NCBI GenBank assembly: GCA_046293555.1
Contig: JBKBOT010000021.1
Coordinates: 1 to 24,514 of the forward strand
From: Pyrobaculum sp.
GTDB taxonomy: Archaea > Thermoproteota > Thermoprotei > Thermoproteales > Thermoproteaceae
Length of the DNA stretch: 24,514 nucleotides
Direction of reading: 5' to 3'
Shown: in pieces, positions 5,626-20,404 of the stretch
Layout: the number at the start of each line of letters is the position of its first letter
Position numbering within the stretch: position 1 is the first letter of the stretch
Translations under genes and position numbers: made by a program
The notes under the pieces: model-generated
Told to the model about the DNA's origin: nothing
Database searches by the model: none
The model's input: the letters and a program-made list of their open reading frames with translations, nothing else

Positions 5626-5644
5626 ATGTCTCGGTACTTGGGGG

Positions 5645-5658
5645 TTTATATACGTCAC
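5645..5658 (-). promoter_or_regulatory. Conserved promoter motif GTGACGTATATAAA
   Basis: ATG at 5625 (33 nt away); 5641-5658 is identical over 18 bp to 245-262. Confidence 0.75.
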
Positions 5659-5688
5659 TCCCCGTTTGTACGTCGTATAAATTGTTTC

Positions 5689-6036
5689 TCAAACTTTCTT
5701 CTTGCATAACAACGTGCGCAGATTCTTAATATTGGTTTGTTGTACCACCACAACGGGCGCCCTGTATACAATCTTGTCCACCCTGTCAGATTTCCGCAAG
5801 ACCTCATACTCAATGCCGAATTTCTCCATGGCGTATTTCAACAGCTCTATGAACAACATGTTTTTAGATCCGCCGACCCTCCTGCCACATATCTTCTCGA
5901 GCATTTTTGCAGGCTTGATGGAGGCGTTTCGGCTGTAGAAGTCGTTGGCCAGAGCTATGAGCATATATGCGACCTCCACAGTGGCCGACTCCCACATGTC
6001 CTGCCTTACGTACAGCCTACCCACCTTTATGTACAT
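5689..6036 (-). CDS. Hypothetical basic protein, possibly winged-helix DNA-binding
   Basis: Last gene of the coupled 9868-to-5689 operon; helix-helix-beta-hairpin pattern; the function call is weak. Confidence 0.55.
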   Translation of the reverse strand: MYIKVGRLYVRQDMWESATVEVAYMLIALANDFYSRNASIKPAKMLEKICGRRVGGSKNMLFIELLKYAMEKFGIEYEVLRKSDRVDKIVYRAPVVVVQQTNIKNLRTLLCKKKV

Positions 6037-6412
6037 ACCCCCTCGACCACGCGACGGTGTACATCACATCATCTAGCCACTCCCAGACGACGTCCTCCTC
6101 CTTCCCGCTCCCCGGCCTCACCAAAGCTCTAACCAGAGGCGGCAGTTTACGTCTATATATCCACAGGTCCACACATCTAAACCTCTCCAAAACGCCGAGC
6201 TTGGGCTCCGCCTCAGCCCAGGCCACGAGGAAGTTCCAGAACTTCTTCTTGGCGTGGATGTATATATCCATGGCCTGTCTGGGCACAACCGGAATTGCAT
6301 ATGAGCTGTAGGCAGGTATGTAAATCACGCCGAACCCCCTACCCACCTTGAAGTACTGCCCCCCTCTACAGAGCGCAGCTAGTATTAACTCTATGACGGC
6401 GCCCCTCATCAT
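6017..6412 (-). CDS. Hypothetical protein
   Basis: Start reassigned to ATG 6412, giving an ATGA overlap with the stop of 6409..7128. Confidence 0.6.
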   Translation of the reverse strand: MMRGAVIELILAALCRGGQYFKVGRGFGVIYIPAYSSYAIPVVPRQAMDIYIHAKKKFWNFLVAWAEAEPKLGVLERFRCVDLWIYRRKLPPLVRALVRPGSGKEEDVVWEWLDDVMYTVAWSRGYVHKGG

Positions 6413-7128
6413 CCAAACATAATGCCGAACGACGGCAAAGACATAAATATCAACAGCAATACGACCAACACTATAATTACCATCGCTATGACTCTCGTAA
6501 TTTGCTCCTTCGACCTCCACGCCCTCCCGGCCTCCTTCAGCAGCTCCATGAAGTACTGCGACGTGGAGTACGCCCTGGCGGCTGAAATCATTACGTCTAA
6601 GTTTTGAGACATCATCGCGGCGATATATGTCTTTATCGCAGATGTGAGCCACTCCCGTTTTATATTCGCGGCTATTTCCACCTCGCCGATGTTGGCGAGA
6701 GTGATCTTCTCGCCTGTCTCCTTCTCAAGTATATGTAGAAACCGTTGTAAACACTCCCTTTCCTCAAGCCCCAACTCGCCACATGTGAACGAAATCCACG
6801 GCGGGATCGCGGTCTTGAGGTCAACTCCGAACTCTATATCTTGGATAAACGCAACTGTGTACACAGGCACGATACGTATCTTCCCGAGCGTTGCGACGAT
6901 GCCCCTCTGCAATGCAGAGGGGACGATCACATGTCTAACGCCATATCTGTATATACTATACGCGCCTGTGCGGTACGTCAACGGCGCCAAGTAGACCTCC
7001 CCCCTCTCCGTGATGACCAAAGCGTATTCGCCATGCGGCCCGCGGAATTTATACACCACAAAGAGAATCAATCCAAACGCAGCTATGGAGGTTATCCAAT
7101 CGATCATACCATCGCTGCGGCCTGACAC
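6409..7128 (-). CDS. Membrane protein with N- and C-terminal TM helices
   Basis: Hydrophobic termini and a soluble middle; part of the overlapping operon. Confidence 0.75.
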   Translation of the reverse strand: MSGRSDGMIDWITSIAAFGLILFVVYKFRGPHGEYALVITERGEVYLAPLTYRTGAYSIYRYGVRHVIVPSALQRGIVATLGKIRIVPVYTVAFIQDIEFGVDLKTAIPPWISFTCGELGLEERECLQRFLHILEKETGEKITLANIGEVEIAANIKREWLTSAIKTYIAAMMSQNLDVMISAARAYSTSQYFMELLKEAGRAWRSKEQITRVIAMVIIVLVVLLLIFMSLPSFGIMFG

Positions 7129-7364
7129 CCAGATATAAGTTGGACGCAGAAGTCCTGCCCCCCACTTGCATACAGCTTATCGCTATCCCTACAGATCGGA
7201 TGGCTGTCATCCTCGACGCACTCCTTCAACACCCGCTCCCTACATATGGCGAAGAACTCCTCCACCGTGTCCACCTTCTCGCCAAGCACCCCGCTGAGAC
7301 ATGTGACAAAAAGGGCGTCTGCCCAACTAGAATACGCCCTCGACTGCCACCTATAGAGACTCAT
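7104..7364 (-). CDS. Small Cys-rich (6 Cys) hypothetical protein
   Basis: Overlaps both neighbours in the operon. Confidence 0.6.
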   Translation of the reverse strand: MSLYRWQSRAYSSWADALFVTCLSGVLGEKVDTVEEFFAICRERVLKECVEDDSHPICRDSDKLYASGGQDFCVQLISGCQAAAMV

Positions 7365-8325
7365 CGCCCCTACACAACGCCTCCTTTAAATATTTCAACA
7401 AGTCCACATAGCTGGGCTTGTCCGGCAACACGTCTGGATCCAAGCCGTACTCCATGGCCCTAAAGACGGCATCACTGTGGCGGTATATGGGGTACGTCTT
7501 CGCATATAGGTATTTATACAACTCTTTGGCCAGCCTCTTGTCACAAACGCATTCATGTAGCTCGTTGAGGTCTGCGGGTATCTTGCCGCAAAGCTGTCTC
7601 CACTTCCATTTCCACTTCCTCCTCACTAGGTAGGGCTCTCCCTCCCCCACTTTACCCAAGCTGCTCACCACCTCTCTACGCTTCTTCATCAACGCAGCCT
7701 CCACGTCCAACGGAAGGGCCAACTCAGGCGTGATGGGAAACTCGCCGACCAGCCTCACCTTGAAGACGTTCCACGCATATGACCCCAATTTGCTCTTCAG
7801 ATACTCCTGGTCCACCTTCAACGTGGACATCAGCTTGTAGACCCTCACAACATCGCCCTCCCGCTCCACGAGGTGTGTGTTCAAAACGTTCCAAAGCCTC
7901 TTGGATATATAATGTCTGTTGAAGGTGGTGAAGATCATCCCCCTCTCCGCAATAGCCCCCCTGGCCAGCTTGATCTGCTCGATGAGTTTAGGCCAGGCCT
8001 TCGGCTCCAGCTGGTAGGTGATATTGGCGTCGTCCATAAACAAGAACTCATACAGCTTCCCCCTCTTGGCCACCTTGGCGAAGTGTTGTACAGCCTCGCT
8101 GATAGACGACGGCATGTAGAAATAATGCCTGTAGACATACCTCCTCGCCTCATCCCAATCCGTCACGCGCCCGGATTTGTACACATGCCAAGCCAAGACG
8201 TTGAAGCCGAGGGCCGTCTTGCCGACGCCAGGTCCGCCGTAGAGGGTCAAAATACCATATCTATCAAACCGCTTTAAAAGCTCGTCGAACTGGCTGTCGA
8301 TCTCCTCCAAATTGTAGACGGTCAT
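7351..8325 (-). CDS. P-loop ATPase, fusellovirus B251/pI-Zot-like (candidate morphogenesis/packaging ATPase)
   Basis: Walker A GGPGVGKT, Walker B FLFMDDA, and downstream LARG...GMIFTT...I-KRL. ATPase call is firm; the family call is by eye. Confidence 0.7.
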   Translation of the reverse strand: MTVYNLEEIDSQFDELLKRFDRYGILTLYGGPGVGKTALGFNVLAWHVYKSGRVTDWDEARRYVYRHYFYMPSSISEAVQHFAKVAKRGKLYEFLFMDDANITYQLEPKAWPKLIEQIKLARGAIAERGMIFTTFNRHYISKRLWNVLNTHLVEREGDVVRVYKLMSTLKVDQEYLKSKLGSYAWNVFKVRLVGEFPITPELALPLDVEAALMKKRREVVSSLGKVGEGEPYLVRRKWKWKWRQLCGKIPADLNELHECVCDKRLAKELYKYLYAKTYPIYRHSDAVFRAMEYGLDPDVLPDKPSYVDLLKYLKEALCRGDESL

Positions 8326-8717
8326 ACCCCGATCTCCTTGTAGATCCTGCCCTTCGCCGCAGCCTTCACAATGGCGCCGTATGCCACAACCGCCTTAAAC
8401 ACAGCGTCTATCTCAGGGTCCATATGGGTTTGTATCTCGAAGATCTCCCCAGCCTTCATCCCCACGAACCTAGACACGTCGAGCCCAACCACGTTGAAGG
8501 CCTCCAGAAATGGGAGCAACATGTATTTATCGACAGTTATATTTAAGTCGGCCAGGAGGGAGGCCAACATCTGCAGCTGCTGCGACCTGGCGATACGTAA
8601 CATCCGCGGAAGCTTCATGTCGTAGAGAACGCTCTTGAACAACGCCCCGGCCTCCTCAAACAGCTTGAGGCGGAGGTCCACTGGAGGCGTTGCAGATGGC
8701 AGCCTCTCAGCCGTCAT
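8322..8717 (-). CDS. Hypothetical helical protein
   Basis: ATG 8717 overlaps the stop of the AAA gene (ATGA); also coupled to the downstream ATPase. Confidence 0.7.
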   Translation of the reverse strand: MTAERLPSATPPVDLRLKLFEEAGALFKSVLYDMKLPRMLRIARSQQLQMLASLLADLNITVDKYMLLPFLEAFNVVGLDVSRFVGMKAGEIFEIQTHMDPEIDAVFKAVVAYGAIVKAAAKGRIYKEIGV

Positions 8718-9868
8718 GGACATCTCCTCCAAAACGCGATCTTTATGTCCTCAGTGTTGGCGCAAGGTCTAAGCATTTTCACCAACTTCACAAGCTGCTG
8801 GTCCCTATCGTACCTGATCTTCACTACAGGCAATTTCTCCGAGCCGTGGTGTGGGATGATCAAAAGCCCCCTCGCCAGCGGCTTGGCGTGTTTCACATAG
8901 CTCTGTCCAACCCTGTCGTCCACAACCCCCACCGCGCCGCTGTCCTCAAGGGCGTTGATCACAAACTTCGGATCTCTATCGCCGTAGATGTACCAAACCT
9001 GTCTAGACCCGCCGAAATAGCCCCACGCGACAAGCAACGCGTGGATTGGAGAGACAGCCGCGGTATATACGCCAACCTCCTCGCTCACGGAGACGCCCAC
9101 AGGCTGTGCGGTATATGGAGGCAAAACCTCGTAGTCCACGTCTGTGTACACACCAGCGCCCTTCTTCAGCTCGGCCATGGTCTTTGCGCCGGCCTTAAAC
9201 TCAAGCCCAGTAAGCTCGGCATATATCTTCAACATCTTCTGAGTGGGCAGAGGTATGCGCAACGCCTTAAACCTCCCGCTGGCGACAGCCGCCTGGTCTA
9301 CAAGCTCCGTGGGGACGTTCGTCGTGAGGACCACAACCCCCCTGTGGTTATCCTCAATATGTTCATGCGCCTTGGCCAACATGGCTGACACTATGGAGTT
9401 GTTCTTAAAGCTAAAGCCCCTTCTGGCCACAAGAACCTCCCCCTCGTCGAAAACCAAAACGCCGTTTGTAGACCTAACCCAGGAGAAGTACTTAGCCACC
9501 CTCTTCTCCGTATCGCCAAGCCATTTTATCAAGACAAGGTCAGGCGTGATTACTTTCACCTCCCTCCCCCACTTCTTTGCGAAATACTTCGGCGCATAGG
9601 ACTTGCCAGTCCGCGGGGGGCCAGTTAGGAGGAAAAGGCTGCCCACCTCCCAGTTGGAAAACGCCTTGTCCAACTCCGTGAAGACCTCCCTATATTGTAC
9701 ATATACATCGCCTGTGGATAACTTCTCGGCAATAAACTCATCGCTCTCAACCCGCCTTTCTACTTTAGGCACGTATGAATACTTCGTATATCTCTCCTCG
9801 ATGCATTTCGGCGGGTCTGTATAAATTATCTCAGAATCTCTCTTTATCATGCGGATGCAGGGATACAC
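8714..9868 (-). CDS. AAA+ ATPase, classical (Cdc48/Vps4/PAN-like) clade
   Basis: Walker A LLTGPPRTGKS, pore loop IKWLGDTE, Walker B VLVFDEGE, SRH TTNVP--VDQA---SGRF. Confidence 0.85.
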   Translation of the reverse strand: MYPCIRMIKRDSEIIYTDPPKCIEERYTKYSYVPKVERRVESDEFIAEKLSTGDVYVQYREVFTELDKAFSNWEVGSLFLLTGPPRTGKSYAPKYFAKKWGREVKVITPDLVLIKWLGDTEKRVAKYFSWVRSTNGVLVFDEGEVLVARRGFSFKNNSIVSAMLAKAHEHIEDNHRGVVVLTTNVPTELVDQAAVASGRFKALRIPLPTQKMLKIYAELTGLEFKAGAKTMAELKKGAGVYTDVDYEVLPPYTAQPVGVSVSEEVGVYTAAVSPIHALLVAWGYFGGSRQVWYIYGDRDPKFVINALEDSGAVGVVDDRVGQSYVKHAKPLARGLLIIPHHGSEKLPVVKIRYDRDQQLVKLVKMLRPCANTEDIKIAFWRRCP

Positions 9869-9901
9869 GAAAGTTAATTATTTAAAAAATATATTTATTA
9901 C

Positions 9902-10312
9902 ATGGTTGAAGACAGACGGTACCTATCCTATAGATACCTCACGTCTAAATACGGCTCAGACTTCCTACAGAACATCAAAGACGTCAACTTCCTCATGTTT
10001 GTAGTAGAGCTGCTTTCACAAGACGCCATGTTGTACATACCAAAACCAGACAGCTACGTAGTGGACCCAAAGACGGAGAGGATATACATCGACTACGGCT
10101 GTGCGTCATTGGTGGTAGACATACCACGTAAGGCCATCTACCTCGCCGTGGCGAACAAAGATATACCAACGCCGCTTATCTACAAACCAATACAAAAGCT
10201 GGAGGATATAAGAGAGATAGAGAGACAAATAGCCATATCTAAAGCCGCTGGGGACATGGAAGAGGAGGGTGAAGAGGAGGGTGAAGAGGGAGGGGGGAAG
10301 GAAGAAGGCTAA
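9902..10312 (+). CDS. Hypothetical protein with acidic C-terminal tail (EEEGEEEGEEGGGKEEG)
   Basis: Divergent AT-rich promoter at 9871-9900; the tail is encoded by a 12-bp tandem repeat at about 10259-10294. Confidence 0.8.
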   Translation: MVEDRRYLSYRYLTSKYGSDFLQNIKDVNFLMFVVELLSQDAMLYIPKPDSYVVDPKTERIYIDYGCASLVVDIPRKAIYLAVANKDIPTPLIYKPIQKLEDIREIERQIAISKAAGDMEEEGEEEGEEGGGKEEG

Positions 10313-10314
10313 CG

Positions 10315-10823
10315 TCAGAATACCCGTCGTCTCTTTTTTCCGCCGGATTTGTTATGAGGTTTGTCTCCAGATACCACTTCCTCATGTGATTGTTCTGTAG
10401 ACAATCCGTGTACTTCCACCTCTCTACCTAAGAGTGGATATATGATATATCTACCATACAGATCTGTGTTGTAGTCTCTAATGTATATAGTCACAGAGGA
10501 GTCGTCCGGTTTGTTTAAGCACAACCAAGAATATATATTAAGTTTATACCTCCCGACCTCAGCTATGTATGATAGCAAGTAATTGTATCTACCCTTGTTA
10601 ACTGATAGTAGATATCTAGATACTTACTCAATCCATGCCTATCTGCAAACTCTTTGATGATTTTATCCAACGCCTTTACGACCTCGCGTAATGTATATGC
10701 GGTGACCATCATCTTATCTATCTCACCAAACTCCAAACGGTCCATGGCGCCTTTAAAGACCTCTAGATGTGACCTCAACGCCTTTACGACCTCGTTGACC
10801 AGTTGTTTCAACAGTGACGATAT
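10315..10823 (-). pseudogene. Broken member of the Arg-tail paralog family
   Basis: ORF 10563..10877 matches the family N-half (LVNEVVKALRSHLE...FADRHGL). ORF 10315..10578 matches the C-half (LSY...NI...KPDDSSV...YIIYP...KKRRRVF). One extra base at about 10581 joins them. The expected start position reads ATA. Confidence 0.7.
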
Positions 10824-10827
10824 ACTA

Positions 10828-11382
10828 CTATACTCTCCGTTTACGTCGAGTGTTTTTACGCTGCTCGACCTCGGCACCGCTGTGTTTGGGATATATAGTG
10901 CTGTTTATGTAATTGTGTATATATTGTTTAGCCTTACCTATGGGCACTTTCTCCTCAAACCTCACATTGCTGTATGGCCAGATGGTGTATCTATAGAGTT
11001 TCCCCTCTCCGTGGTCTTCCATAAACACGTCTATAGACGCATCGTCCATCCTCTCCATCGGCATAACGATAAATATGTTAAGCACAACGTAGCGCCCAGA
11101 ATGGACAGAATAGATGTTGTTAGACAATGCGAAGATCTTATCTTTTGTGTTCGGCATTGGCATAATGATGTTAGTCGCACTAGAGAAGCCGTATCTACGC
11201 AAGATCTCTTCGATAAGTTTCGTCACGCTAGCCGAAACATCCGCCGGCGGCCTCTCCTTAACCCACTTCATGGCCCCATCAGGACCTGCCTCCTCTGCCA
11301 CCCTCCTGACCTGCTCTAGGTAGGGCTTGGCCAGCCTCAAGACCCCCCACGCCAACTCGCCCGGGAGCTTACGTAGGGACAT
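10828..11382 (-). CDS. Arg-tail paralog family protein (tail RKNTRRKRRV)
   Basis: GAGGT RBS before ATG 11382; close paralog of 11394..11936 (shared KIFALS, NIFIVMPM--MDDASIDVF). Confidence 0.85.
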   Translation of the reverse strand: MSLRKLPGELAWGVLRLAKPYLEQVRRVAEEAGPDGAMKWVKERPPADVSASVTKLIEEILRRYGFSSATNIIMPMPNTKDKIFALSNNIYSVHSGRYVVLNIFIVMPMERMDDASIDVFMEDHGEGKLYRYTIWPYSNVRFEEKVPIGKAKQYIHNYINSTIYPKHSGAEVEQRKNTRRKRRV

Positions 11383-11393
11383 ATACCTCACTA

Positions 11394-11936
11394 TTACGTC
11401 TTCCGTCTACGTCGAGTGTTTTTACGTGAGCTATCGCCACCCCTCTTACGGAGAGACATTGCGTTCCTTAGGTAGTCGGCTAGGTGTTGACTCACCTCGC
11501 CAATGGGCACAGACTGTTCGAAACTCACGCCGCGGTACGGCCCGACTGTATGTCTATAGCTCATCCCACTCCCACGGTCGTGTACAAACACATCTATAGA
11601 CGCATCATCCATTTTTTTCATCGGCATGACGATAAATATGTTAAACAAGGCGCCGTCTTCCGAATAGACGTTGTAAGACAGAGCGAAGATCTTCTCGTCC
11701 ACATTCGCAATGGGTATCACCGTATCGTAGGCTCTAGGTAGGCCGTATTTATCGGCCAGGTTGTTGACAAACTGTATAAGCCCCCTCAAGAGCCCCATCG
11801 GCGGCCTCCCCATGACCCACAACATGGCGCCAGACGGCCCCACCACATTCACCACATTCTTGACTTGGTCGAAATATGGCCTAACCAACTCGGCGACGCC
11901 CCTCGCCACCTCGCCCGAGAGCCTACGTAGAGACAT
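11394..11936 (-). CDS. Arg-tail paralog family protein (tail RKNTRRRRKT)
   Basis: ATG 11936 is 33 nt from the motif promoter. Confidence 0.85.
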   Translation of the reverse strand: MSLRRLSGEVARGVAELVRPYFDQVKNVVNVVGPSGAMLWVMGRPPMGLLRGLIQFVNNLADKYGLPRAYDTVIPIANVDEKIFALSYNVYSEDGALFNIFIVMPMKKMDDASIDVFVHDRGSGMSYRHTVGPYRGVSFEQSVPIGEVSQHLADYLRNAMSLRKRGGDSSRKNTRRRRKT

Positions 11937-11955
11937 ATGTCCCAATACCTAAAGG

Positions 11956-11969
11956 TATATATACGTCAC
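11956..11969 (-). promoter_or_regulatory. Conserved promoter motif GTGACGTATATATA
   Basis: ATG at 11936; the TGA within the motif is also the stop codon of the upstream gene. Confidence 0.75.
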
Positions 11970-12532
11970 CTCCGCCTGCGGCGACGACGCCTATTGTTGT
12001 CTTCACCCCTATCGACATCCTCCTCGTCAAGTCCCATTCTGTGTAACACATTCATATACTCTCTGTATAGATTTTCGATATCCTCCCAACTATATGTCTC
12101 CTCATCTTTCCATCCATGTAGCGGAAATATGGCATAGCTGTAGACCAACTCATCGGTCTCATCGGCTGGGACATATACGTCCACTATAGCGCTTTTCGGC
12201 TTTTGTAACGATAATGCAACGTTTACTGTAAATAGAACTCTCTCGCCTGTTTCAAGCGTGTACGACATTATGTAGATCTTATGATTGGTGTCTACAATCG
12301 GATCGATTATGCCGATAGCGTCGGGGATCCCGTACGCACTAGCAAAAGCCTTGGCGAATCCGTCTACGGCAGATGCGATTTTCTCCATCGTCATATTGAC
12401 AACATTACGTCTAGCTTGTGATTGAGGCCCCGCCCTTGACATCATCTTTACAAACTCCTTGAGGTGTGGCTTGATGACTTTGGCCACCTCCTCCGCTATA
12501 GCCTTAGCTAACTCGCGTGGATGTTCCATCAT
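11966..12532 (-). CDS. Arg-tail paralog family protein (tail R8)
   Basis: HPRELAKAIAEEVA...YGIP...YSYAIFP family motifs. Confidence 0.85.
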   Translation of the reverse strand: MMEHPRELAKAIAEEVAKVIKPHLKEFVKMMSRAGPQSQARRNVVNMTMEKIASAVDGFAKAFASAYGIPDAIGIIDPIVDTNHKIYIMSYTLETGERVLFTVNVALSLQKPKSAIVDVYVPADETDELVYSYAIFPLHGWKDEETYSWEDIENLYREYMNVLHRMGLDEEDVDRGEDNNRRRRRRRR

Positions 12533-13071
12533 GTCCTTTTGCCACGCCTCCTCCTTTTTCTGTCCTCCCCCTTCCCCTCGCCCCCGCCGCCTCCAAACCC
12601 CCCCTCAGCAAACCTGCGCACTTGTTCTGGCGACAAGACTTGTTCGTGCTCCTCGCCTGTAAACGGCGCAATCGCGTATCTATACACAGAGCCGTCTAAA
12701 CCCCTCACGCCTACAGACACGAAAGAGAGCTCCGGCGCATATATGTTCAACGTGATGATGGCAACCACTCTCTTCATGCCGCCTATAACCCAGCTGTATC
12801 CAACCATGAAGCTCCCCTTTTCTTGATCCACAAAGATGGGCTCTATCACCGAGTACACATCCACGCCATATATCTGCCTAATTGCCGTCGTGACTTTATC
12901 TAACTCCGTTATGATCTTACGTATTGCGTAGAGGGCCGCAAGCGGCTCGTCCAAGCCGACATACTTGGCGTTACGGACACGCCTACGGAACTTATCCAAA
13001 TGGGGATAGGCAACCTCGAGGACGTGATCAGCCACCTCCTTTGCTATATCCATTGGATTTTTGCCTTGCAT
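12529..13071 (-). CDS. Arg-tail paralog family protein (Gly linker + RKRRRRGKRT)
   Basis: NPMDIAKEVA...YRYAIAPFTGE; ATG is 33 nt from the motif. Confidence 0.85.
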   Translation of the reverse strand: MQGKNPMDIAKEVADHVLEVAYPHLDKFRRRVRNAKYVGLDEPLAALYAIRKIITELDKVTTAIRQIYGVDVYSVIEPIFVDQEKGSFMVGYSWVIGGMKRVVAIITLNIYAPELSFVSVGVRGLDGSVYRYAIAPFTGEEHEQVLSPEQVRRFAEGGFGGGGGEGKGEDRKRRRRGKRT

Positions 13072-13090
13072 ATACCCCTACGTCTAGAGA

Positions 13091-13104
13091 TATAAATACG
13101 TCAC
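13091..13104 (-). promoter_or_regulatory. Conserved promoter motif GTGACGTATTTATA
   Basis: ATG at 13071 (33 nt away). Confidence 0.75.
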
Positions 13105-13128
13105 CATTTCGCTTATTCCCAGAGAGCC

Positions 13129-13590
13129 TTAACGCGCCGCTTGTCTGCGCCCCCTCTTCCGCCGTGGCTCCTCGTTGTAGTAAATTCTCGCCTCACCTGC
13201 CCACTTGAGTATGTCGTCTTCTGTAATTACCCCGCCGTCCAGAAACGGAGACTTCTCGTACTTACGCACCACTCTGCCATCCCTCACCACATATGCAGCT
13301 ACAGCCATCGAACCCTTTAGGGACATCACTATAACCATTGTGTGATGATGTCTATTTCTCACAATCAGTTTGTACGTCAAGATAAGTAGCCCCCTCTCTT
13401 GCTCTTCAAACACCCTAGCCACTATGTAGGTCCCCTGCTTTTCCGTAACCGTGTAAATATAGTCGTCAATAAGCTTGTTCACCAACAACGTGATTTTATG
13501 TGACATGGAGACATAGGCACTTCCAACCCTTTTTACAACTCTCCTAACCTCTCCAGCCAGCCTGTCTACAAACCCCCTTAGACCGTCCAC
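13129..13590 (-). CDS. Divergent Arg-tail family protein (tail RRKRGRRQAAR)
   Basis: LAGEV N-terminal helix, beta-rich middle, SPF motif and basic tail. Confidence 0.75.
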   Translation of the reverse strand: MDGLRGFVDRLAGEVRRVVKRVGSAYVSMSHKITLLVNKLIDDYIYTVTEKQGTYIVARVFEEQERGLLILTYKLIVRNRHHHTMVIVMSLKGSMAVAAYVVRDGRVVRKYEKSPFLDGGVITEDDILKWAGEARIYYNEEPRRKRGRRQAAR

Positions 13591-14090
13591 CGCCGCCTCC
13601 TACGCCTAGGCGCAGCTCCCGAAGGCGGTTCAAACACGGGCGGCCTAAGCCCGCCTAGAGGGCCGCCATGTAGCCTCTCGCCGGTGAGCGGGTAGACGGC
13701 GTATGGATATTTACCAAACCCCCCCTTCCAGTCGTATACGTTCACCTTCACCAATGCCTTGTCTATATCATGCGGAGGCACAATCACCTTTATGATGGCC
13801 AGCCAATCGCGTGTGTATATGCTATATGAGTATATGTACTGATTGGGATCAAAGGCGAATCCGAAGTCTAAAATAAGGCGTTCAAACCTAGGCAAGTCGT
13901 AGGTTTTGGCAAAGGCCTCCACAAGACCGTCAAGCGCGTTGCCAACCTCTCCCTTGAACTCACTAAACGCCGCGACCAAGTCCAGGCTGGATTTAGCTCT
14001 AGTCGCCCTCTCCTTAAGCCTCTCTATATACGGCTTTACAACCTCGGCCGCCCCCTCGGCCAAGGCCTTGGCAAGATCCCCAGGATGCAT
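13578..14090 (-). CDS. Arg-tail paralog family protein (tail PRRRRRRWTV)
   Basis: MHPGDLAKALAE...YDLP...YAVYPLTGE; ATG is 33 nt from the motif. Confidence 0.85.
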   Translation of the reverse strand: MHPGDLAKALAEGAAEVVKPYIERLKERATRAKSSLDLVAAFSEFKGEVGNALDGLVEAFAKTYDLPRFERLILDFGFAFDPNQYIYSYSIYTRDWLAIIKVIVPPHDIDKALVKVNVYDWKGGFGKYPYAVYPLTGERLHGGPLGGLRPPVFEPPSGAAPRRRRRRWTV

Positions 14091-14109
14091 ATATCCCAAC
14101 GCCTATGGA

Positions 14110-14123
14110 TATAAATACGTCAT
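14110..14123 (-). promoter_or_regulatory. Conserved promoter motif ATGACGTATTTATA
   Basis: ATG at 14090 (33 nt away). Confidence 0.75.
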
Positions 14124-14137
14124 TTTTTACGATTACA

Positions 14138-14686
14138 TTACTGTCGTCTTTTACGCCTTTTACGCATTAAGTCATACGCCTCTTTTGACCCTCCAGCTCC
14201 AAGTACTTTCATATCTTTTGCAGCTCTCTTGACGGCACGTGTGTATTCCTCTAATGACAATTCGTCTTGCTGCCTCTCGTCAGTGAACGGATAAATTGAA
14301 TACAAATATACTTTCCATCTGCCAAAAGCCGTAACGACTATAGACGAACTGTTTGGATCTCGTAACGGTATGGTGATAGTTATGTTTGCTAACTGCCATC
14401 CCCCCTCTGTGAACAAGTTGTATGTTAATATGTACGTTTCTGTCTCAACGTTAATAACAGGCACTGCGTAGATAAACACTTTCGGCAAGCCGTAAGTACG
14501 GACGACGTCCATCACGACGTTGTTTGACGCCTCTATGATCCCTTTAGTGAGGCCATCTAACGCGGCCAACCCCTCTCTAGAGGTGCCGCCCACCTCAGTT
14601 GTTATTGTCTTATATCTCTCTAAATACGGCCTTACCGCTTTGGCGATATTTTCGGCCAACGTTTTCGCCAACTCTTTGGGATACAT
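14138..14686 (-). CDS. Arg-tail paralog family protein (tail RKRRKRRQ)
   Basis: MYPKELAKTLAE...YGLP...YSIYPFTDE. Confidence 0.85.
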   Translation of the reverse strand: MYPKELAKTLAENIAKAVRPYLERYKTITTEVGGTSREGLAALDGLTKGIIEASNNVVMDVVRTYGLPKVFIYAVPVINVETETYILTYNLFTEGGWQLANITITIPLRDPNSSSIVVTAFGRWKVYLYSIYPFTDERQQDELSLEEYTRAVKRAAKDMKVLGAGGSKEAYDLMRKRRKRRQ

Positions 14687-14705
14687 ATGCCACTACACCT
14701 AAAGA

Positions 14706-14719
14706 TATAAATACGTCAT
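14706..14719 (-). promoter_or_regulatory. Conserved promoter motif ATGACGTATTTATA
   Basis: ATG at 14686 (33 nt away). Confidence 0.75.
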
Positions 14720-14738
14720 TGTGGCATATAGTATTGCC

Positions 14739-14819
14739 TTACACATAGGCCAGACCGCATATCTCTAGGCACTTGTGTCTACTAACAACAAGAGCTTTTG
14801 CTAACTCTTTAGGACGTAT
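14739..14819 (-). pseudogene. Relic 5' fragment of an Arg-tail family gene (IRPKELAKAL...)
   Basis: 14790-14819 resembles 14657-14686; the start position reads ATA and no motif promoter remains. Confidence 0.55.
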
Positions 14820-14902
14820 AAACCACTACCTTAACACATACATGTTCCACACACACCCCCAGACTAGAGGTCCCCCACATGCGGCGGCGCCCACCTCTGT
14901 CC

Positions 14903-15388
14903 TCACACCGCCACCCTCTTACGCTGACGTGTTTGATTTACAGCTGTCTGTGTTGTTAACTCTACCTTCTCGCTCTCCTCGCCTGTGGCCAGGTTTAGCC
15001 TGTATACATAACGCTTATCGCGATGTCTTATGTAGACGGTCATATACGACATCTCCGGCCGATGTGCGTATAAGTCAAGACGTAACTCAAACCACCCATC
15101 GCCCCCCTCCAGTGGATACCCCTCTATTGGATACGCCACAAACCTCCCGCTGAGCTTCAACTGCCCCTCGTCGAGACTTATGTGCTCTACATAATACCCC
15201 CGCGTGTAAATCCTCGTGAAGGCGGCCAAAACCTCCACAATCTCCCTCCACCAGTCGTCAACCTCCTCCCTCATGGTCTTGAGGCTGGGCTCCTCCCTAA
15301 TGGACTTCAAAATCCCCGCCAAAGCCCGTCTCGCGTATGAATCCCTCAAGACAAACGTCGCCGTCCGCCTCGCCCACTCCACGTCCAT
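14903..15388 (-). CDS. Hypothetical protein with basic tail (RQRKRVAV), probably a distant array member
   Basis: Helical N-half and beta-rich C-half with YVYRLNLATGE; ATG is 33 nt from the motif. Confidence 0.8.
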   Translation of the reverse strand: MDVEWARRTATFVLRDSYARRALAGILKSIREEPSLKTMREEVDDWWREIVEVLAAFTRIYTRGYYVEHISLDEGQLKLSGRFVAYPIEGYPLEGGDGWFELRLDLYAHRPEMSYMTVYIRHRDKRYVYRLNLATGEESEKVELTTQTAVNQTRQRKRVAV

Positions 15389-15407
15389 ACCCCCACCTGC
15401 CCATCCC

Positions 15408-15421
15408 TATTTATACGTCAC
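15408..15421 (-). promoter_or_regulatory. Conserved promoter motif GTGACGTATAAATA
   Basis: ATG at 15388 (33 nt away). Confidence 0.75.
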
Positions 15422-15571
15422 TACGACAAAAACACACCATCGACACGCACATCGCCGTTGTTTGAATTTATTGAAATTTTTCAACAAAATGGCTGCAACA
15501 ACGCCGCCGCGCGTGTTCTGTCTGTTGTCCTTATATTGTTGCACATGTGTGGACACATGTCATGTATCTCC

Positions 15572-15886
15572 ATGGCGGGGAGATACCAGACGTTTCTCTC
15601 CGCAGCACGTTGGCGCGTGTCATTTGTGTATAGAGACGTCGAGGAGAAATACTTGAGGGCCAAGAGGCTCGCCAAGGCGTATTGGGGCTTGGTGCACGTG
15701 TTGAAGTACGACACCTGCAGCGGCGTGTTAGTCATGCCGCTCGACAACGGTTTTGAGATAGAGATCGGCGATGTGGTTAGGGTGAGGTTTGGAGACGTGG
15801 TGGTGGAGCTCCCAGACGAGAGGCTGTTGATAAGGATGAAGATCTGTGTGGGGGAGGTATGTCTACAGTCGAGGGCGCGGAGTTGA
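15572..15886 (+). CDS. Hypothetical protein
   Basis: Codon usage is protein-like from ATG 15572 onward; the start is uncertain. Confidence 0.6.
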   Translation: MAGRYQTFLSAARWRVSFVYRDVEEKYLRAKRLAKAYWGLVHVLKYDTCSGVLVMPLDNGFEIEIGDVVRVRFGDVVVELPDERLLIRMKICVGEVCLQSRARS

Positions 15887-16000
15887 TGGACAGACCGGCG
15901 CTGGGCCCGTAGCTGTTGACGTTAAAAGCATAAGCCATCGAGGCGAAGCTGTTGAAAAAGGCGATCTGTAGATGATTTATATAGCCCCCCGATGTGAGAT

Positions 16001-16666
16001 GTGAGCAAGAGGGTGACGCTTGAGTTTAAAGACGGCAATATAACACGCATATATACAATGGACGTACGCCTAGCTGAGTTGATAAAAAACGTTGGAAGCA
16101 AGATAGTGGAGATGCTACGCACCGAGCTGAAAGACACGTTGTTGCTTAGGTGTGTCGGTAGGGAGTGGTTCTGCGACGGCGTGACCGGCGTGTCTATAAA
16201 TACACGCATGAGAGAGCCCGCGCCTGTGGTTAACGAATATCTTTTCTCCATCACTCCCAAATCACACCTCTACCTCAGAATTATCGAATTTATTTACTCT
16301 GCAATTTTACATGTTGGCAGGCTGAGGGGCATGCCGTTGACATATAACAACATACTCGAGGTGATGTATCACATCATGCAACGGGACCCTGAACGCGCCG
16401 CCAGATACATAACGTACTTCGGCCTGGCCTTTTCCAAATCCGCAAGGGAGTTCGGAAGGGAGCTTGAGACAGCTAGGAGGTACCTCGAGGAGTTTCTAAA
16501 GGAGGCTGCAGCCGTATTTCCACACAAGCGGGAAAAAATAGAGCAATACATACAGACGGTCCAAAGCGGCATGCCGCTGACGCGGGCAGAGGCGACGTTC
16601 AGACGACGCGAGGCACAGCCGGAGGCGGCGGCTGCGAGGCGGCGGAGGCGGCGCACAGGCATATAG
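16001..16666 (+). CDS. Hypothetical protein with tail AAARRRRRRTGI; paralog of 17188..17760
   Basis: TTTATATA box 25 nt upstream; shares PLTY--I/M-EV--HI--R-P--AA and FLK-A----P-K---I--Y with 17188. Confidence 0.8.
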   Translation: MSKRVTLEFKDGNITRIYTMDVRLAELIKNVGSKIVEMLRTELKDTLLLRCVGREWFCDGVTGVSINTRMREPAPVVNEYLFSITPKSHLYLRIIEFIYSAILHVGRLRGMPLTYNNILEVMYHIMQRDPERAARYITYFGLAFSKSAREFGRELETARRYLEEFLKEAAAVFPHKREKIEQYIQTVQSGMPLTRAEATFRRREAQPEAAAARRRRRRTGI

Positions 16667-16668
16667 TT

Positions 16669-17184
16669 ATGTACAACGACCTTGCGGCATGGACGCTAGC
16701 TACACTCCTGGCCCTGGCAGGTTGGCGTGATGTAAAACACAGAGAGATAGAGGTATGGATCTTCGCCGCAATGGCGCCGCCAGCAGCATATCTCGTTTTG
16801 GCCAGTTGGCAAGACCCCGTATATCAACTCCAGTTCATGTTAGGCGCCGTATATGCCTTGGCGCTGGTATACATCCGCGCAGGCGCTGGCGACATCTTGG
16901 CGGCGCTGGCCGCAGCGGCGGCCGGGGCAACTCTTACCGTGTTTCTCCTTACGGCAACACTCATAGCGTTAACGCCACTGTGGCTGTACGCGTTAAACAC
17001 CAGGAGGCCTTGCCCCATGTCAAGGCGAGAGAGGGCCACGTATATATGCATACGCCGCGGGGAGTTTGGAAAATACGGCGTCGAGGCTGAGGGGGAGTGG
17101 GCAAAGGCGAGGTACGGCCCGCCGTATGTGGCATGGATCGCCGCTGCCGTTTGCGTGACGTATATATATCACTGTTGTGTGTGA
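16669..17184 (+). CDS. Prepilin peptidase, family A24 (GxGD intramembrane aspartic protease, PibD/FlaK-like)
   Basis: WRDVKHREI (first Asp), GAGD (second Asp), C-terminal PY--I motif and multiple TM helices. Confidence 0.8.
   Translation: MYNDLAAWTLATLLALAGWRDVKHREIEVWIFAAMAPPAAYLVLASWQDPVYQLQFMLGAVYALALVYIRAGAGDILAALAAAAAGATLTVFLLTATLIALTPLWLYALNTRRPCPMSRRERATYICIRRGEFGKYGVEAEGEWAKARYGPPYVAWIAAAVCVTYIYHCCV
17155..17168 (+). promoter_or_regulatory. Conserved promoter motif GTGACGTATATATA
   Basis: ATG at 17188 (33 nt away); embedded in the 3' end of the peptidase gene. Confidence 0.75.
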
Positions 17185-17187
17185 CAT

Positions 17188-17760
17188 ATGGCGCTTAGAC
17201 GTAGAGCTGCGAACGTCGTTAGAGTCAGCTGGGGAGTCCACCCACTTGCACACGACATATGGAAACACATCGGCGGATATGTGAAGGACGTGTTGAGAAA
17301 GGGGCTGAGAGACGCTGCGTTCAACTTGTGCTACGGCGCGTTGACGCATACAATGGGGTGTCCAGACGGCAGCGGTCTGTACGTATACCGCGAGGACGAG
17401 GCACCGATTGGCAACAAGGAGCATCTGTTTAACGAAGGCGGCTGGCGTTTTTACATATACGGCCCACTCTTTGTGACATATGCCGTCAGCCAGTTTGTGG
17501 ACAGAGAAAAAGTGCCGTTGACATACGACGAGGCGATGGAGGTGGTCAGACACATCGCCGAGAGGAGTCCAAAGCTCGCCGCCACCCTGGTGGCACACCT
17601 TGCGTTCCCGCCGAGGAGCGACGAAGACCACATGTACGTCTACGACTTCCTAAAGGCGGCGAAAAAGATCATGCCCTACAAGGAGGGGGAGATAAACGAT
17701 TATGTGTTCTGGAGGCTACAGTCAAAACCGTTCCGCGGCAGGGGAACGTTCACGTTTTAA
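17188..17760 (+). CDS. Hypothetical protein, paralog of 16001..16666
   Basis: Shares motifs with 16001; basic N-terminus MALRRR. Confidence 0.8.
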   Translation: MALRRRAANVVRVSWGVHPLAHDIWKHIGGYVKDVLRKGLRDAAFNLCYGALTHTMGCPDGSGLYVYREDEAPIGNKEHLFNEGGWRFYIYGPLFVTYAVSQFVDREKVPLTYDEAMEVVRHIAERSPKLAATLVAHLAFPPRSDEDHMYVYDFLKAAKKIMPYKEGEINDYVFWRLQSKPFRGRGTFTF

Positions 17761-18491
17761 AACATGTAGTCTAACATAGCGTCTATACATCTCACGTCGA
17801 CAGACTCTTTTTTCACAAGCCTTGCCGTTAGCCTTAACGCCTCGTGGTATGCATGACTACTCCCAGACGTCAGATATGCGGCAAGACTTGACAGAACGTC
17901 TGGCTCTGTGTGAAACAACGTGGCGACACATCTGTTCCAACTGCCGCGACCGAGTCTTTCAACCATATCGAGGACAAAGCCTGAAAGCTTGGAGACATCC
18001 AAGAGGACTGTGCGTTCCACATCTACATATGGCTCTACTCGTTTTACAACATACGCGATTACCTCGTTGAGGTATATGCCAGATGTCGTGATGAAATACA
18101 CTGCGGCCGATAAGTGATCTACGCCGCTCGCGACAACCACGTTCGGCATACGTCTATACATTTTCTTCATATCGCTAATTGACATCTTGTCGTCAGGTAT
18201 TGGTATTAAGTATACCGACATATCCCCATAAAACTTAGCAACGCCGTGTTTATACCCAATGGACGCAAACGCCATATGTTTCGCGTCTAACTTCTCGTTT
18301 CTCAACATGGTGAAAAACACAACGTCTACGTCAGATGCGTCGGACTTAAGTTCAGGCAATCTGTCAACCCCCTCTAAAACATAACCATTCCCCCTCCTCA
18401 TAACTCCCCCCTCACCATCTAACGTATACACAACGCCGTGGAGCACTAGGGTGTTTACCATTAGGTTATCAGTAGGCTTTACTTCCAACAT
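17757..18491 (-). CDS. Hypothetical protein, possibly a shortened Cas8a2/Csa4-like (type I-A large subunit) homolog
   Basis: The CDS is solid (TATA upstream). N-terminal NTLVLHGVV--L...RRGNGY and C-terminal YLTSG----Y-EALR--AR resemble Cas8a2 by eye only. Confidence 0.45.
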   Translation of the reverse strand: MLEVKPTDNLMVNTLVLHGVVYTLDGEGGVMRRGNGYVLEGVDRLPELKSDASDVDVVFFTMLRNEKLDAKHMAFASIGYKHGVAKFYGDMSVYLIPIPDDKMSISDMKKMYRRMPNVVVASGVDHLSAAVYFITTSGIYLNEVIAYVVKRVEPYVDVERTVLLDVSKLSGFVLDMVERLGRGSWNRCVATLFHTEPDVLSSLAAYLTSGSSHAYHEALRLTARLVKKESVDVRCIDAMLDYMF

Positions 18492-18550
18492 ATCGTAAAG
18501 GACATATAGCTATATAAATTCAACATTTAATACAACATATAACGCCGTTT

Positions 18551-19483
18551 GTGTCTGTTTGCATAATCGCTTTAGGCACGCCGCTGGACGCCAAGCCGAG
18601 GCCATGGCTGTATTTTGAAGTGCCCGTTTTGCTCATAAACGCATTAGAAGTAAAGGACAACCCCCGCTCTGTATTACAACATGACGGTAAGCTTTGGATA
18701 GACTCCGGCGGCTATCAGATAATGAGGAAGGGAATTACAATAGACGTTTACGACGTAATTAAAATATACGAGAGGGTAAACGCCGATCTCTACTTCTCTT
18801 TAGACGTGCCTCCCACTCCACAAGACCCGCTTGAATTAGCAAGAAAGAAGTTCGAAAAGTCTTATCAAAACTGGCTAAAACTGTCGAAAAGGATAGAGGT
18901 AGTGCCGGTGTTACATGTGTATAAAGACGCAAAGCTGTTTTTAGAGTATTTAGAGAAATACGAAAACGTCCCCGCTCTTGCTATTGGTGGCGCTGTGCCG
19001 TATGTCCTCACCACACGGGGCGCTTCTAGACAGTTTGCGTTTAGTTTGATCGCAGCCGCCAGGAGGCGGTTTAAAGGTAAGCTACACGTCTTCGGCCTCG
19101 GCAGCCCGGCCATTACGCCCATATTAAGGGCATTGGGCATAGACAGTACCGACACGGCCACATGGCGCCTTAAGGCGGCATATGGAAAAGTGCTTCTTCC
19201 AGGCGGCGGGGAGAGACATGTAACTAAGAGGGAGGTGAAGTTTGGAAAAAAGAAGCCCAAAGACGGCGAACTTGAAGAGCTATACCACTTCCTAAGAGAG
19301 ACGGGATTCCCCCTGGCGGACGCCTTTTTTGAAAGGCTAAACCGCTTTGAATATAGAGCGTTGGTAAACGCGTGGGTTGTGTTGAGACCAGAAAGACCAC
19401 CAAGACCTACCGAATTCAGAAAGCTATATAACACACTCACCAACGGGTTAGAGAAGTTCATAATCAAGGCAGAAAGAGTATAG
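18551..19483 (+). CDS. Guanine transglycosylase (TGT/DpdA-like) family protein
   Basis: WIDSGGYQ, LDVPP, VPVLH, LAIGG, LHVFGLG and GIDSTD-ATW motifs; no CxCxxC zinc site and no PUA extension. Confidence 0.85.
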   Translation: MSVCIIALGTPLDAKPRPWLYFEVPVLLINALEVKDNPRSVLQHDGKLWIDSGGYQIMRKGITIDVYDVIKIYERVNADLYFSLDVPPTPQDPLELARKKFEKSYQNWLKLSKRIEVVPVLHVYKDAKLFLEYLEKYENVPALAIGGAVPYVLTTRGASRQFAFSLIAAARRRFKGKLHVFGLGSPAITPILRALGIDSTDTATWRLKAAYGKVLLPGGGERHVTKREVKFGKKKPKDGELEELYHFLRETGFPLADAFFERLNRFEYRALVNAWVVLRPERPPRPTEFRKLYNTLTNGLEKFIIKAERV

Positions 19484-19620
19484 GCCGGACTGACGGGGAT
19501 AGCCCCCACTACCACTACCCATTCCACCACTCATTACCCCCATATATGTCATTAGACAAGTCGAATGTTTTTTCGCCTTTTCATTGTTACCTACGGCGAG
19601 ATACGCCGTAGTTTTTATTT

Positions 19621-19762
19621 TCTAAACATTCGCGGCATATGTCCAAAGATTTCCAAACATTCACATTTTATTTCCAAAGATTTCCAAAAATTCACACATT
19701 TCCAAACATTTGTGGTTTTGGTCCAAAGATTTCCAAAGATTTGTGCCGTGGCTCCAAAGATT
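19621..19762. repeat. Array of nine 10-bp direct repeats TCCAAA(G/C)ATT (iteron-like)
   Basis: Copies start at 19621, 19642, 19652, 19673, 19683, 19701, 19722, 19732 and 19753, in an AT-rich gap between convergent genes. Confidence 0.85.
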
Positions 19763-19814
19763 CTCTAGAGAATAAGAGAACCGGCCCCCGATAGGATGCG
19801 TGTAGAAAGTCAGC

Positions 19815-20282
19815 CTAGCCTTGCTTCAAGGCCTCGGCCAGCTGGGGGTATTGCGAAATCTTGTCCATTGGGGCTATGTGGCAATACTTCCCATCGCTGT
19901 GCCAGACGTAGACGTATTGTTGTTTATAGTCAGTTCTGACGCCAAGCCGCCCGGGCCGGCCACATTTTGGACATGTGACAAGCGGTCGCCTTGGGTGTGG
20001 GCCGGGCCTCAGCCTTATCCCAGCCTGCCGCAGGTTGTTCTGTATGATGTAAACCGAGACCCCGAGCTCCCTTGCGATTTCCCACAGCCTTAGCCCTTTT
20101 TCGTATAGCTCCAACACCTTGTTGATATCTACAGACCTCCAACGTCTTGTAGACACGCCATATTGCTTGAGATACTTAGAGACTGTGGCTGGATTGTAGC
20201 CAAAAATGCGCGCGATCTTGTTGATAGACATTCCGCTGTCGTAAAGCTTGGCCATCTCCTTTATCCTCTCCTCGAATTTCAT
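19815..20282 (-). CDS. DNA-binding protein with two tandem HTH motifs and a C-terminal zinc finger
   Basis: GMSINKIARIFG---ATVSKYL and GLRLWEIARELGVS---I---L; CPKC...H...CH. Confidence 0.85.
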   Translation of the reverse strand: MKFEERIKEMAKLYDSGMSINKIARIFGYNPATVSKYLKQYGVSTRRWRSVDINKVLELYEKGLRLWEIARELGVSVYIIQNNLRQAGIRLRPGPHPRRPLVTCPKCGRPGRLGVRTDYKQQYVYVWHSDGKYCHIAPMDKISQYPQLAEALKQG

Positions 20283-20385: not shown

Positions 20386-20404
20386 CTGGTTTATACATAG
20401 GCCC

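Follow-up and report, generated by a model that had tools for sequence, protein, structure and literature searches.

The window analysed here, contig C21 (24,514 bp, taken whole) of a 1.75-Mb, 96%-complete genome bin of 145 contigs, carries on its minus strand at 10315-15388 a tandem array of ten consecutive open reading frames (ORFs), named c9, c8, c7, c6, c5, c4, c3, c2, c1N and c1C, which are nine gene-equivalents of one protein family, seven clear and two distant (c6 and c9). The contig is a mobile element of a Pyrobaculum-type archaeon: host CRISPR spacers target it, the family is absent from relatives, and it has extra replication genes of host type. Each array protein ends in a short run of arginine and lysine, and this basic tail is a modular tag common to unrelated families of the element. 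We infer, with a probability of about 0.35, that the tag tethers variable modules to the DNA of the element, perhaps for co-packaging. An earlier, sequence-only reading of this stretch had described some nine or ten diverged paralogs of an unrecognised family; the modularity of the tag, one frameshifted copy and an element-specific promoter are added to it here. The stretch was found in one DNA run, labelled hot springs metagenome, so that the array evidence is that of a single element in a single run.

The viruses and plasmids of hyperthermophilic Thermoproteales count with the most poorly understood of all mobile elements, and their genes are orphans almost throughout. On this CRISPR-targeted element a well-folding orphan domain (AlphaFold2 pLDDT 83, ESM Atlas pTM 0.84) was duplicated nine times. 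The separable poly-arginine tag, placed on unrelated families, might serve to anchor proteins to nucleic acid or to mark them as cargo for loading.

Paralogy, fold and divergence of the array proteins

As examined by all-against-all BLASTP, c2, c3, c4, c5, c7 and c8 were linked over their whole lengths. The adjacent copies c2 and c3 were the most alike in the array, with 44-45% identity (BLASTP: 44%, 174 aa, 162 bits), and the remaining pairs among the six showed 22-31% identity and 27-69 bits. A profile hidden Markov model (HMM) of these six members was run on every stop-to-stop ORF with 50 aa or more that the genome contains (14,804). The six members scored E 1e-57 to 9e-78, c1N 6.3e-9 and c1C 2.5e-7; the next, unrelated ORF came at E 0.5, c6 at E 1.9, and c9 was unlisted at E<=10. 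Because no further ORF of the genome scored better than E 0.5, the family, within the reach of this HMM, is confined to the array.

The two halves of c1 adjoin on the profile, c1N covering positions 3-85 and c1C positions 82-156, and their frames differ by -1, with an overlap at 10566-10623 in which no slippery heptamer was seen. Therefore c1 is one copy broken by a frameshift. A second assembler's contig from the identical run, which spans 4933-11054 with 0 gaps, also has the break, indicating that it is not one assembler's slip, though the reads are identical.

For c6 and c9 the basic tails were trimmed before testing, so low complexity was of no help to their scores. Against the family HMM c6 scored 13.9 bits, which none of 2000 shuffles reached (maximum 9.7), and c9 scored 4.0 bits, reached by 3/2000 shuffles. 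A c9 paralog on C25, another contig of the bin, scored 3.8 bits (7/2000), and as a control, the score of an unrelated tagged protein at 16001-16666 was reached by 202/2000. The result of hhalign showed 25.2 for the pair of c9 and its paralog (maximum 20.1 in 250 column shuffles, 0/250 reaching it) and 21.4 for c6 (maximum 17.8 in 200 shuffles, 0/200). The alignments of both to the family were colinear and in register. The AlphaFold2 model of c9 was poor (pLDDT 50.8, low confidence) with an element order as in the family, which is consistent with membership and not decisive. These results of BLASTP, HMM and hhalign bore out the proposed series of about nine or ten diverged tandem paralogs, as the ORFs are homologous and make nine gene-equivalents, and the motifs named for it (an N-terminal helix with P-(Y/H)-L, YG(L/I)P, (L/M)SY, Y-Y-I-P-(F/L)-TGE and the basic tail) were all visible in the alignments.

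The genes, all on the minus strand, are arranged in five predicted transcription units, c9; c8; c7-c6; c5-c4; and c3-c2-c1. The most diverged member, c9 (14903..15388, 161 aa; ORF list, HMM, hhalign), has its own promoter, and c8 (14138..14686, 182 aa; ORF list, BLASTP, HMM), likewise a single-gene unit, was the member chosen for modelling. The c7-c6 unit opens with c7 (13578..14090; promoter spacing, BLASTP, HMM), which has 170 aa from ATG 14090 within an ORF (13578-14099) that opens at TTG 14099; the database protein P0006 likewise has 170 aa. The distant member c6 (13129..13590, 153 aa; HMM, hhalign) overlaps the end of c7, has no promoter of its own and misses part of the first helix pair. 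In the next unit, c5 (12529..13071, 180 aa; ORF list, BLASTP, HMM) is followed by c4 (11966..12532, 188 aa), whose start overlaps the c5 stop (ATGA) and which has the longest tail, with eight arginines, and the most acidic body (net -11). The last unit begins with c3 (11394..11936; promoter spacing, BLASTP, HMM), 180 aa from ATG 11936 in an ORF at 11394-11945. The starts of c7 and c3 were corrected to 14090 and 11936 because these ATGs lie 19 nt after the promoter motif. The start of c2 (10828..11382, about 184 aa, ORF 10828-11391; BLASTP, HMM), which lacks a promoter motif of its own and has c3 as its nearest paralog, was corrected to 11382 because this is the first in-frame ATG and agrees with the alignment to c3. 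The unit ends with the split copy, of which c1N (10563..10877) is the N-terminal half with an uncertain true start and c1C (10315..10578) the C-terminal half with a KKRRR tail.

The AlphaFold2 model of c8, built on the six-member alignment, had a predicted local distance difference test score (pLDDT) of 83.3 and a predicted template modelling score (pTM) of 0.76. It showed helices at 3-32 and 37-64, six strands within 70-144, a helix at 145-164, and a low-confidence, disordered linker and tail (pLDDT 41-54). An independent single-sequence model of the family domain in the ESM Atlas had a pTM of 0.84. The invariant residues of the family alignment were A11, P20, Y65, V118, Y127, P133 and the tail arginine, and no acidic or catalytic-looking column was conserved in it.

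The array proteins have 153-188 aa. In every copy a stretch rich in Gly, Pro or acidic residues leads into a terminal run of 4-8 Arg/Lys (net +4 to +7), and the body has a net charge from -11 (c4) to +6 (c6). All six arginine codons are used in the tails (CGT 13, AGG 13, CGG 8, AGA 6, CGA 4 and CGC 3); the tail is therefore kept at the protein level, which argues against a simple DNA repeat. A Kyte-Doolittle scan of the array proteins found no N-terminal or membrane-anchor hydrophobic segment, the sole hydrophobic window lying in a strand region of c6. Membership of the type IV pilins or class III signal peptide proteins was rejected, as the N-terminal helices are charged and without a hydrophobic segment, and pilin chains reached Z 5-7 in the structural comparison.

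When the six-member profile was compared with 1.84 billion representative proteins, the matches were the six queries alone, and the ten proteins looked up were singletons, save one near-identical copy of the AAA ATPase of the element. The family occurred in 0/28 genomes of the same taxonomic family, and neither tblastn with c8 nor blastn with the array sequence gave a match among 50,697 records of phages and archaeal viruses. Scans of IMG/VR with c4 and with the AAA ATPase gave nothing confirmed, and the ESM Atlas gave no usable hit by features, every structural row having a TM-score below 0.5. PADLOC and NCBIfam yielded 0 families for 8/8 intact array proteins at E<=0.01, PHROGs gave chance-level rows alone (E>=0.0059), and Pfam gave no meaningful match; the best PDB sequence, at E 0.096, was an unrelated peptidase. 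The c8 model had no Foldseek match in the PDB at E<=0.001, and its best TM-score in BFVD was 0.41, with one row at 8e-4 whose TM-score of 0.22 is not meaningful. The family is thus as unrecognised as had been claimed, with no relative in the protein, genome, virus or domain collections searched; no characterised housekeeping family appeared in Pfam, PHROGs, PDB sequences, PADLOC or NCBIfam, and the suggested check by AlphaFold and Foldseek returned a confident c8 model and no significant fold match.

A wide search with VIA-align placed chains of inositol monophosphatase (IMPase), SuhB, CysQ or SAL1 at 9 of the top 10 ranks, rank 10 being an actin-capping protein. The best match, 5yht_A, had Z 9.5 and a root-mean-square deviation of 3.4 A over 119 residues of the N-terminal domain, slightly above the best Z of 7-8 that is typical for unmatched models. 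The IMPase-type chains aligned 110-127 residues of model residues 1-157 to chain residues ~4-130, with 5-13% identity. The likeness to the N-terminal domain of these enzymes (5yht, 4n81, 2q74, 5djf) consists of a pair of long helices with an antiparallel sheet after them (Z 8.2-9.5, 113-119 residues), whereas half of the two-domain fold is present here, the catalytic and metal residues are unconserved, and a sequence signal is lacking. Membership of the IMPase / fructose-bisphosphatase (FBPase) family was rejected on several grounds. The array protein has one domain against a two-domain alpha-beta-alpha-beta-alpha sandwich of ~250-300 aa. The metal-binding acidic residues, which we take to form a conserved motif of the superfamily, are not conserved, a D-P-I-x-D-like string occurring in c4 alone. 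There was no Inositol_P Pfam hit at E<=0.1, and no PDB sequence match below E 0.096. As judged from the model, the likeness would be a resemblance of fold and not membership.

Promoters and 5' ends in the array were duplicated together (direct-repeat families D2-D4), and the c1 copy is decaying. The rate of nonsynonymous over synonymous substitution (dN/dS), calculated by NG86, was ~0.52 for c2-c3 (dN 0.43, dS 0.81) and ~0.48 for c9 and its paralog on C25 (9352-9789; 60% identical, 5'-truncated; dN 0.29, dS 0.62), both values being rough and limited to the two youngest pairs, as the synonymous sites of older pairs are saturated. A ratio near 0.5 appears fast for coding genes, yet it is below 1. 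The expansion and rapid divergence claimed for the array were thereby supported, and the array looks like a birth-and-death family under weak purifying selection. In addition, a perfect 19-nt direct repeat in c1N (10668-10686 and 10776-10794) encodes EVVKAL in both helices and has a 79% copy in c7 (D6), perhaps left behind when copies recombined.

Promoter grammar, mobile element and shared tag

The motif TGACGTATWWATA occurred 12 times in the window against 0.05 expected, a number that 0/100 shuffles reached. Five exact minus-strand copies precede array genes, namely c9 (TGACGTATAAATA at 15408..15420), c8 (14706..14718), c7 (14110..14122), c5 (13091..13103) and c3 (11956..11968, including the TGA stop codon of c4), and in 5/5 the ATG follows exactly 19 nt after the motif. 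Archaeal leaderless genes have an A/T-rich TATA box with an upstream purine-rich TFB recognition element (BRE) ~25 nt before the transcript start or start codon. The 19-nt spacing would fit leaderless archaeal transcripts, and the leaderless BRE/TATA arrangement was predicted from the sequence in 5/5 array promoters. The five motif promoters with units of one to three genes that had been noticed earlier could thus be recognised as five BRE/TATA motifs heading units of 1, 1, 2, 2 and 3 genes.

The pattern "motif + 19 nt + ATG" was found 10 times in this genome (six on C21, three on C25 and one on the contig C30). Across the 28 further genomes from the taxonomic family it turned up a single time, and its reversal, used as a control, gave 2 hits. 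Since the grammar is nearly absent from the 28 related genomes, the promoter is the element's own and not a general host one. Together with the element's own TFB, a promoter grammar confined to the element would provide a naturally occurring example of archaeal transcription specific to one element. In a metagenome collection, "motif + 17 nt + ATATG" was met at 118 loci or more, at least; these were treated as chance, as the family HMM had a best E of 2 among 1918 ORFs there and no C21 or C25 protein matched at E<=1e-4. A 24-nt element with the palindrome TTGAAAATTTTCAA (15467..15490, inverted repeat I4; second copy at 2723-2746) lies upstream of the c9 promoter and is a possible operator.

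The mobile-element setting that the first description implied was confirmed by host spacers that match C21 and by the absence of the family from the 28 related genomes. The 293 CRISPR spacers were taken from 19 contigs of the bin, and self hits and hits within other CRISPR contigs were dropped. There were 4 matches on C21 (3592-3626, 4926-4966, 22743-22788 and 22966-23002), 4 on C25, 7 on C19 and others on further small contigs. The element has its own copies of PCNA (438-1196), TFB (21229-22080) and dCTP deaminase (22125-22658). The closest other PCNA of the genome, on C16, shares 62% identity with that of the element, and the copies of relatives share 56-62%; two further divergent PCNA copies of the genome lie on small contigs, one of which is CRISPR-targeted. 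The bin holds three versions of dCTP deaminase, the further ones being on C38 and C66, and the closest TFB elsewhere in the genome, on C5, shares 48% identity with the element TFB. The element may be one or a few allied ones, spread over C21, C25 and probably C30.

Domain scans of C21, C25 and C30 turned up no recognisable capsid, terminase, integrase or conjugation ATPase, no end overlap of at least 20 nt was found between any of these three and any contig, and C21 showed no tRNA gene or flanking direct repeat marking an integration site. For the AAA ATPase at 8714-9868, the one homolog over the full length had 35% identity and lay on a contig of 2.7 kb. Its best viral matches were in the bicaudavirus-like large spindle viruses of Sulfolobales (ATSV, SMV1-4, STSV1/2), at 25-28% identity over about half of the protein and E 9e-11 to 4e-5. 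The large coiled-coil proteins of C25, one with a weak VWA match, can be set beside the large coiled-coil / VWA proteins presumably present in the spindle virus ATV. The element differs from the large spindle viruses in that the AAA+ similarity is generic and neither a capsid match nor a homolog of the array was found. Kinship with the Pyrobaculum globulovirus PSV was rejected, the family HMM reaching a best E of 0.13 against the ORFs of at least 50 aa, including VP2 and VP3, of its 28-kb genome; PSV had no homolog and no promoter motif, and one tagged ORF.

Tags were counted as a run of at least 4 R/K, with at least 3 R, at a terminus, using a crude ORF caller in which c2 was replaced by an antisense ORF. 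C-terminal tags were present in 10/44 ORFs on C21 compared with 14/2085 elsewhere in the genome, and N-terminal tags in 7/32 ORFs on C25 compared with 15/2097 elsewhere. On C21, the tagged proteins at 1259-1606, 4204-4557 and 16001-16666 have no BLAST link to the array family. C25 holds another orphan family that has expanded, with six paralogs of ~250 aa that carry a poly-Arg tag at the N-terminus (846-3907 and 17293-20663), and the promoter motif of the array precedes most of them; for one member, the model in the ESM Atlas had a pTM of 0.85, and its nearest neighbours were helical bundles with TM-scores below 0.5. C25 also encodes a pair of coiled-coil paralogs with 773 and 905 aa (6891-9212 and 14509-17226), of which the larger shows a weak VWA match in its C-terminal part and a basic tag at its N-terminus; several small proteins of C25 are likewise tagged at the N-terminus.

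A putative nucleic-acid anchor and the rival readings

The setting of the proposed mechanism is an uncultivated, CRISPR-targeted, virus-like element in a Pyrobaculum-type archaeon. Each gene would produce an alpha+beta module of ~150 residues (two long helices on a six-stranded antiparallel sheet, then a helix), a flexible Gly-/acid-rich linker and a C-terminus of 4-8 Arg/Lys. The tail would act as a modular polyanion anchor that fastens the module to nucleic acid, with the DNA of the element as the likeliest partner, and the modules might coat this DNA or be condensed and packaged with it. The diverged module surfaces (net -11 to +6) would do copy-specific work, probably on host factors. Five leaderless transcripts would start from the stereotyped, element-specific BRE/TATA promoter, which the element TFB may read. 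We infer four of these steps, namely nucleic-acid binding by the tag, because of the general chemistry of poly-arginine, and packaging, action on the host and use of the element TFB.

Several observations speak for the anchor. The tail charge is constant (+4 to +7) against a variable body charge, the tag is enriched on the element, and it is modular; the conserved residues, which appear to carry no catalytic signature, count on the same side. So do the use of all six arginine codons in the tails, the disorder of linker and tail in the model, the dN/dS values near 0.5, the evidence for a mobile element and the promoter grammar. Short separable terminal peptides that place a protein by packaged nucleic acid are present in phage T4 (the capsid targeting sequence of internal proteins), in the hepatitis B core (the C-terminal Arg-rich domain) and in adenovirus core proteins. 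The tag described here shares this general design as an analogy; it differs in that it occurs on several unrelated families and at either terminus, has no homology to the T4, hepatitis B or adenovirus peptides, and stands on an element with no recognised capsid, protease or packaging gene.

A number of points weigh against the anchor. Because a capsid or packaging hallmark gene is lacking, virus and packaging are unproven, and the element could be a plasmid. Poly-arginine also binds RNA, acidic lipids and acidic proteins, and nine different co-packaged modules would be unusual. The fold search yields nothing that points to a function, and because relatives of the element are lacking, conservation of the array cannot serve as a test. 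The tail of c9 is weak (RQRKR), and the tag counts rest on the crude ORF caller that dropped c2.

The first description had offered either host-conflict effectors or nucleocapsid proteins, and both deserve comparison with the anchor. If the paralogs were structural core or nucleocapsid subunits, they would assemble, perhaps as heteromers (c7-c6, c5-c4, c3-c2), into a DNA-condensing scaffold with the arginine tails facing the DNA. Arg-rich arms belong to many capsid and core proteins. The strong, repeated promoters, the tail on every copy, the overlapping or translationally coupled gene pairs, and the seven small membrane proteins and two ATPases just downstream all agree with such a scaffold, and the alpha+beta layers with a C-terminal helix and basic end loosely recall actin-capping protein heterodimers (VIA Z 7.0). 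We nevertheless regard it as unlikely, as body charges from -11 to +6 and identities of 20-30% mean more divergence than co-assembling subunits would show, one copy is broken, and neither the PSV structural proteins (best PSV ORF E 0.13) nor any viral model in BFVD (best TM-score 0.41) is similar. A similarly doubtful alternative keeps the proteins inside the cell as unpackaged host-takeover or anti-defence effectors, whose targets for neutralisation, a separate host factor or variant for each paralog, would belong to CRISPR-Cas, restriction, chromatin or the ribosome, with the tail directed to host nucleic acid or an acidic target. The element is under CRISPR attack, and tandem duplication, fast divergence and gene decay are what such effectors would show; the conserved residues are fold-determining and not catalytic, and a weak Cas8a-like fragment together with a DNA-modification-type transglycosylase suggests that the element invests in counter-defence. 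However, no PADLOC, Pfam or PHROG family matched, a length of ~180 aa is larger than that of most anti-CRISPRs, and the same tag at either terminus of unrelated families (905-aa and 250-aa proteins) is left unexplained. Multigene families of DNA viruses and the terminal paralog families of crenarchaeal viruses are comparable in tandem duplication, fast divergence, occasional pseudogenes and their place on a defence-targeted mobile element; they differ in having no sequence or fold relation to the array, which in addition has a poly-Arg tag per copy and an element-specific promoter on most units.

Positively charged C-terminal signals are found on substrates of the Agrobacterium VirB/D4 system, and the array tails could in principle be export signals for a conjugation-type or pilus apparatus. 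The charged C-termini and two weak domain hints (T4SS_CagC at 5332-5658, Peptidase_A24 at 16669-17184) agree with this, as does the VirB2/VirB4/VirB6-type Ted system that the Thermoproteales have (PMC9905601). Such translocation is very unlikely, given that C21, C25 and C30 show no recognisable protein of the VirB4/TedB or VirB6 type, that both Pfam hints fall below their curated cutoffs, and that an N-terminal tag in other families does not fit a C-terminal export signal. The least probable of the alternatives is a degenerate IMPase / FBPase offshoot, an exapted N-terminal domain still binding a phosphorylated ligand or regulating a phosphatase. It draws on the VIA-align ranking, with 9 of the top 10 entries of IMPase type and 5yht_A at Z 9.5, and it has to contend with the Z of 7-8 typical for unmatched models, identities of 5-13%, a wholly absent C-terminal domain, the lack of any invariant acidic residue, of an Inositol_P Pfam hit and of a PDB sequence match below E 0.096, and a superfamily that Foldseek did not list.

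Beyond the anchor itself, a wider and more speculative idea, which we consider rather improbable, is that terminal poly-Arg is a general sorting code. The element DNA would recruit any protein tagged at either end, and these proteins would be loaded with it into a transmissible particle. The tagged set includes two expanded orphan families, several small proteins and the coiled-coil/VWA protein of 905 aa; the array would be an arsenal delivered with the genome, and the set would be switched on by the element promoter through the element's own TFB. If true, the tag as a sorting signal would give a simple tool for loading proteins into archaeal particles. As far as our literature searches went, tag-based cargo loading of this kind is undescribed for archaeal viruses or plasmids. 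Full-text searches found no description of arginine-rich tags with paralogs in Pyrobaculum proviruses or of arginine-rich C-termini in archaeal viruses. A preprint (bioRxiv 10.1101/2020.01.16.907410) makes no mention of paralogs, multicopy genes, gene families or duplication, and the portion of PMC4158269 consulted describes no such family.

Neighbouring genes and further features of the element

A 136-aa protein at 9902-10312 (+) adjoins the array on the opposite strand and ends in a strongly acidic Glu/Gly tail of ~20 residues; it might serve the array's basic tails as chaperone or partner. Just downstream of the array, together with the two ATPases of the element (one being the AAA ATPase), lie seven small proteins with predicted membrane segments (2169-7128, minus strand). 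Within this membrane block, the small protein at 5332-5658, with two transmembrane segments, had a weak match to T4SS_CagC (VirB2-like; E 2.6e-4, 21.6 bits, cutoff 27.9), and the protein at 4204-4557, first gene of one operon, has the C-terminal Arg tag. The weak Peptidase_A24 match at 16669-17184 had E 5.5e-4, below the curated cutoff. Other genes of C21 encode a helix-turn-helix protein and a DNA methylase.

The 244-aa protein at 17757-18491 (-) showed weak similarity to Cas8a2/Csa4, the type I-A large subunit (PADLOC E 3.5e-7 over 143-243; PF09703 E 7e-4, below cutoff), and may be a Cas8a decoy or anti-CRISPR. At 18551-19483 (+) a protein like tRNA-guanine transglycosylase is encoded (phrog_887 E 4e-28; TIGR00432 E 3e-14, far below cutoff). 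DpdA-type enzymes put 7-deazaguanine into DNA, and this protein could be such an enzyme, acting on the DNA of the element.

On C30 a single ORF of 3775 aa (8297-19624) had no Pfam match, and the contig also carries the element promoter grammar, paralogs of the protein at 16001-16666 and a CRISPR spacer target. C25 has a PaREP1 match, which agrees with a Pyrobaculum-type host. Finally, in a non-coding stretch of C21, a 49-nt unit made up of recurring CCAAAGATTTCCAAA(C/G)ATT words is present at 19613-19772 in four copies that overlap (repeat D1); these repeats appear iteron-like and may mark an origin or a regulator site.

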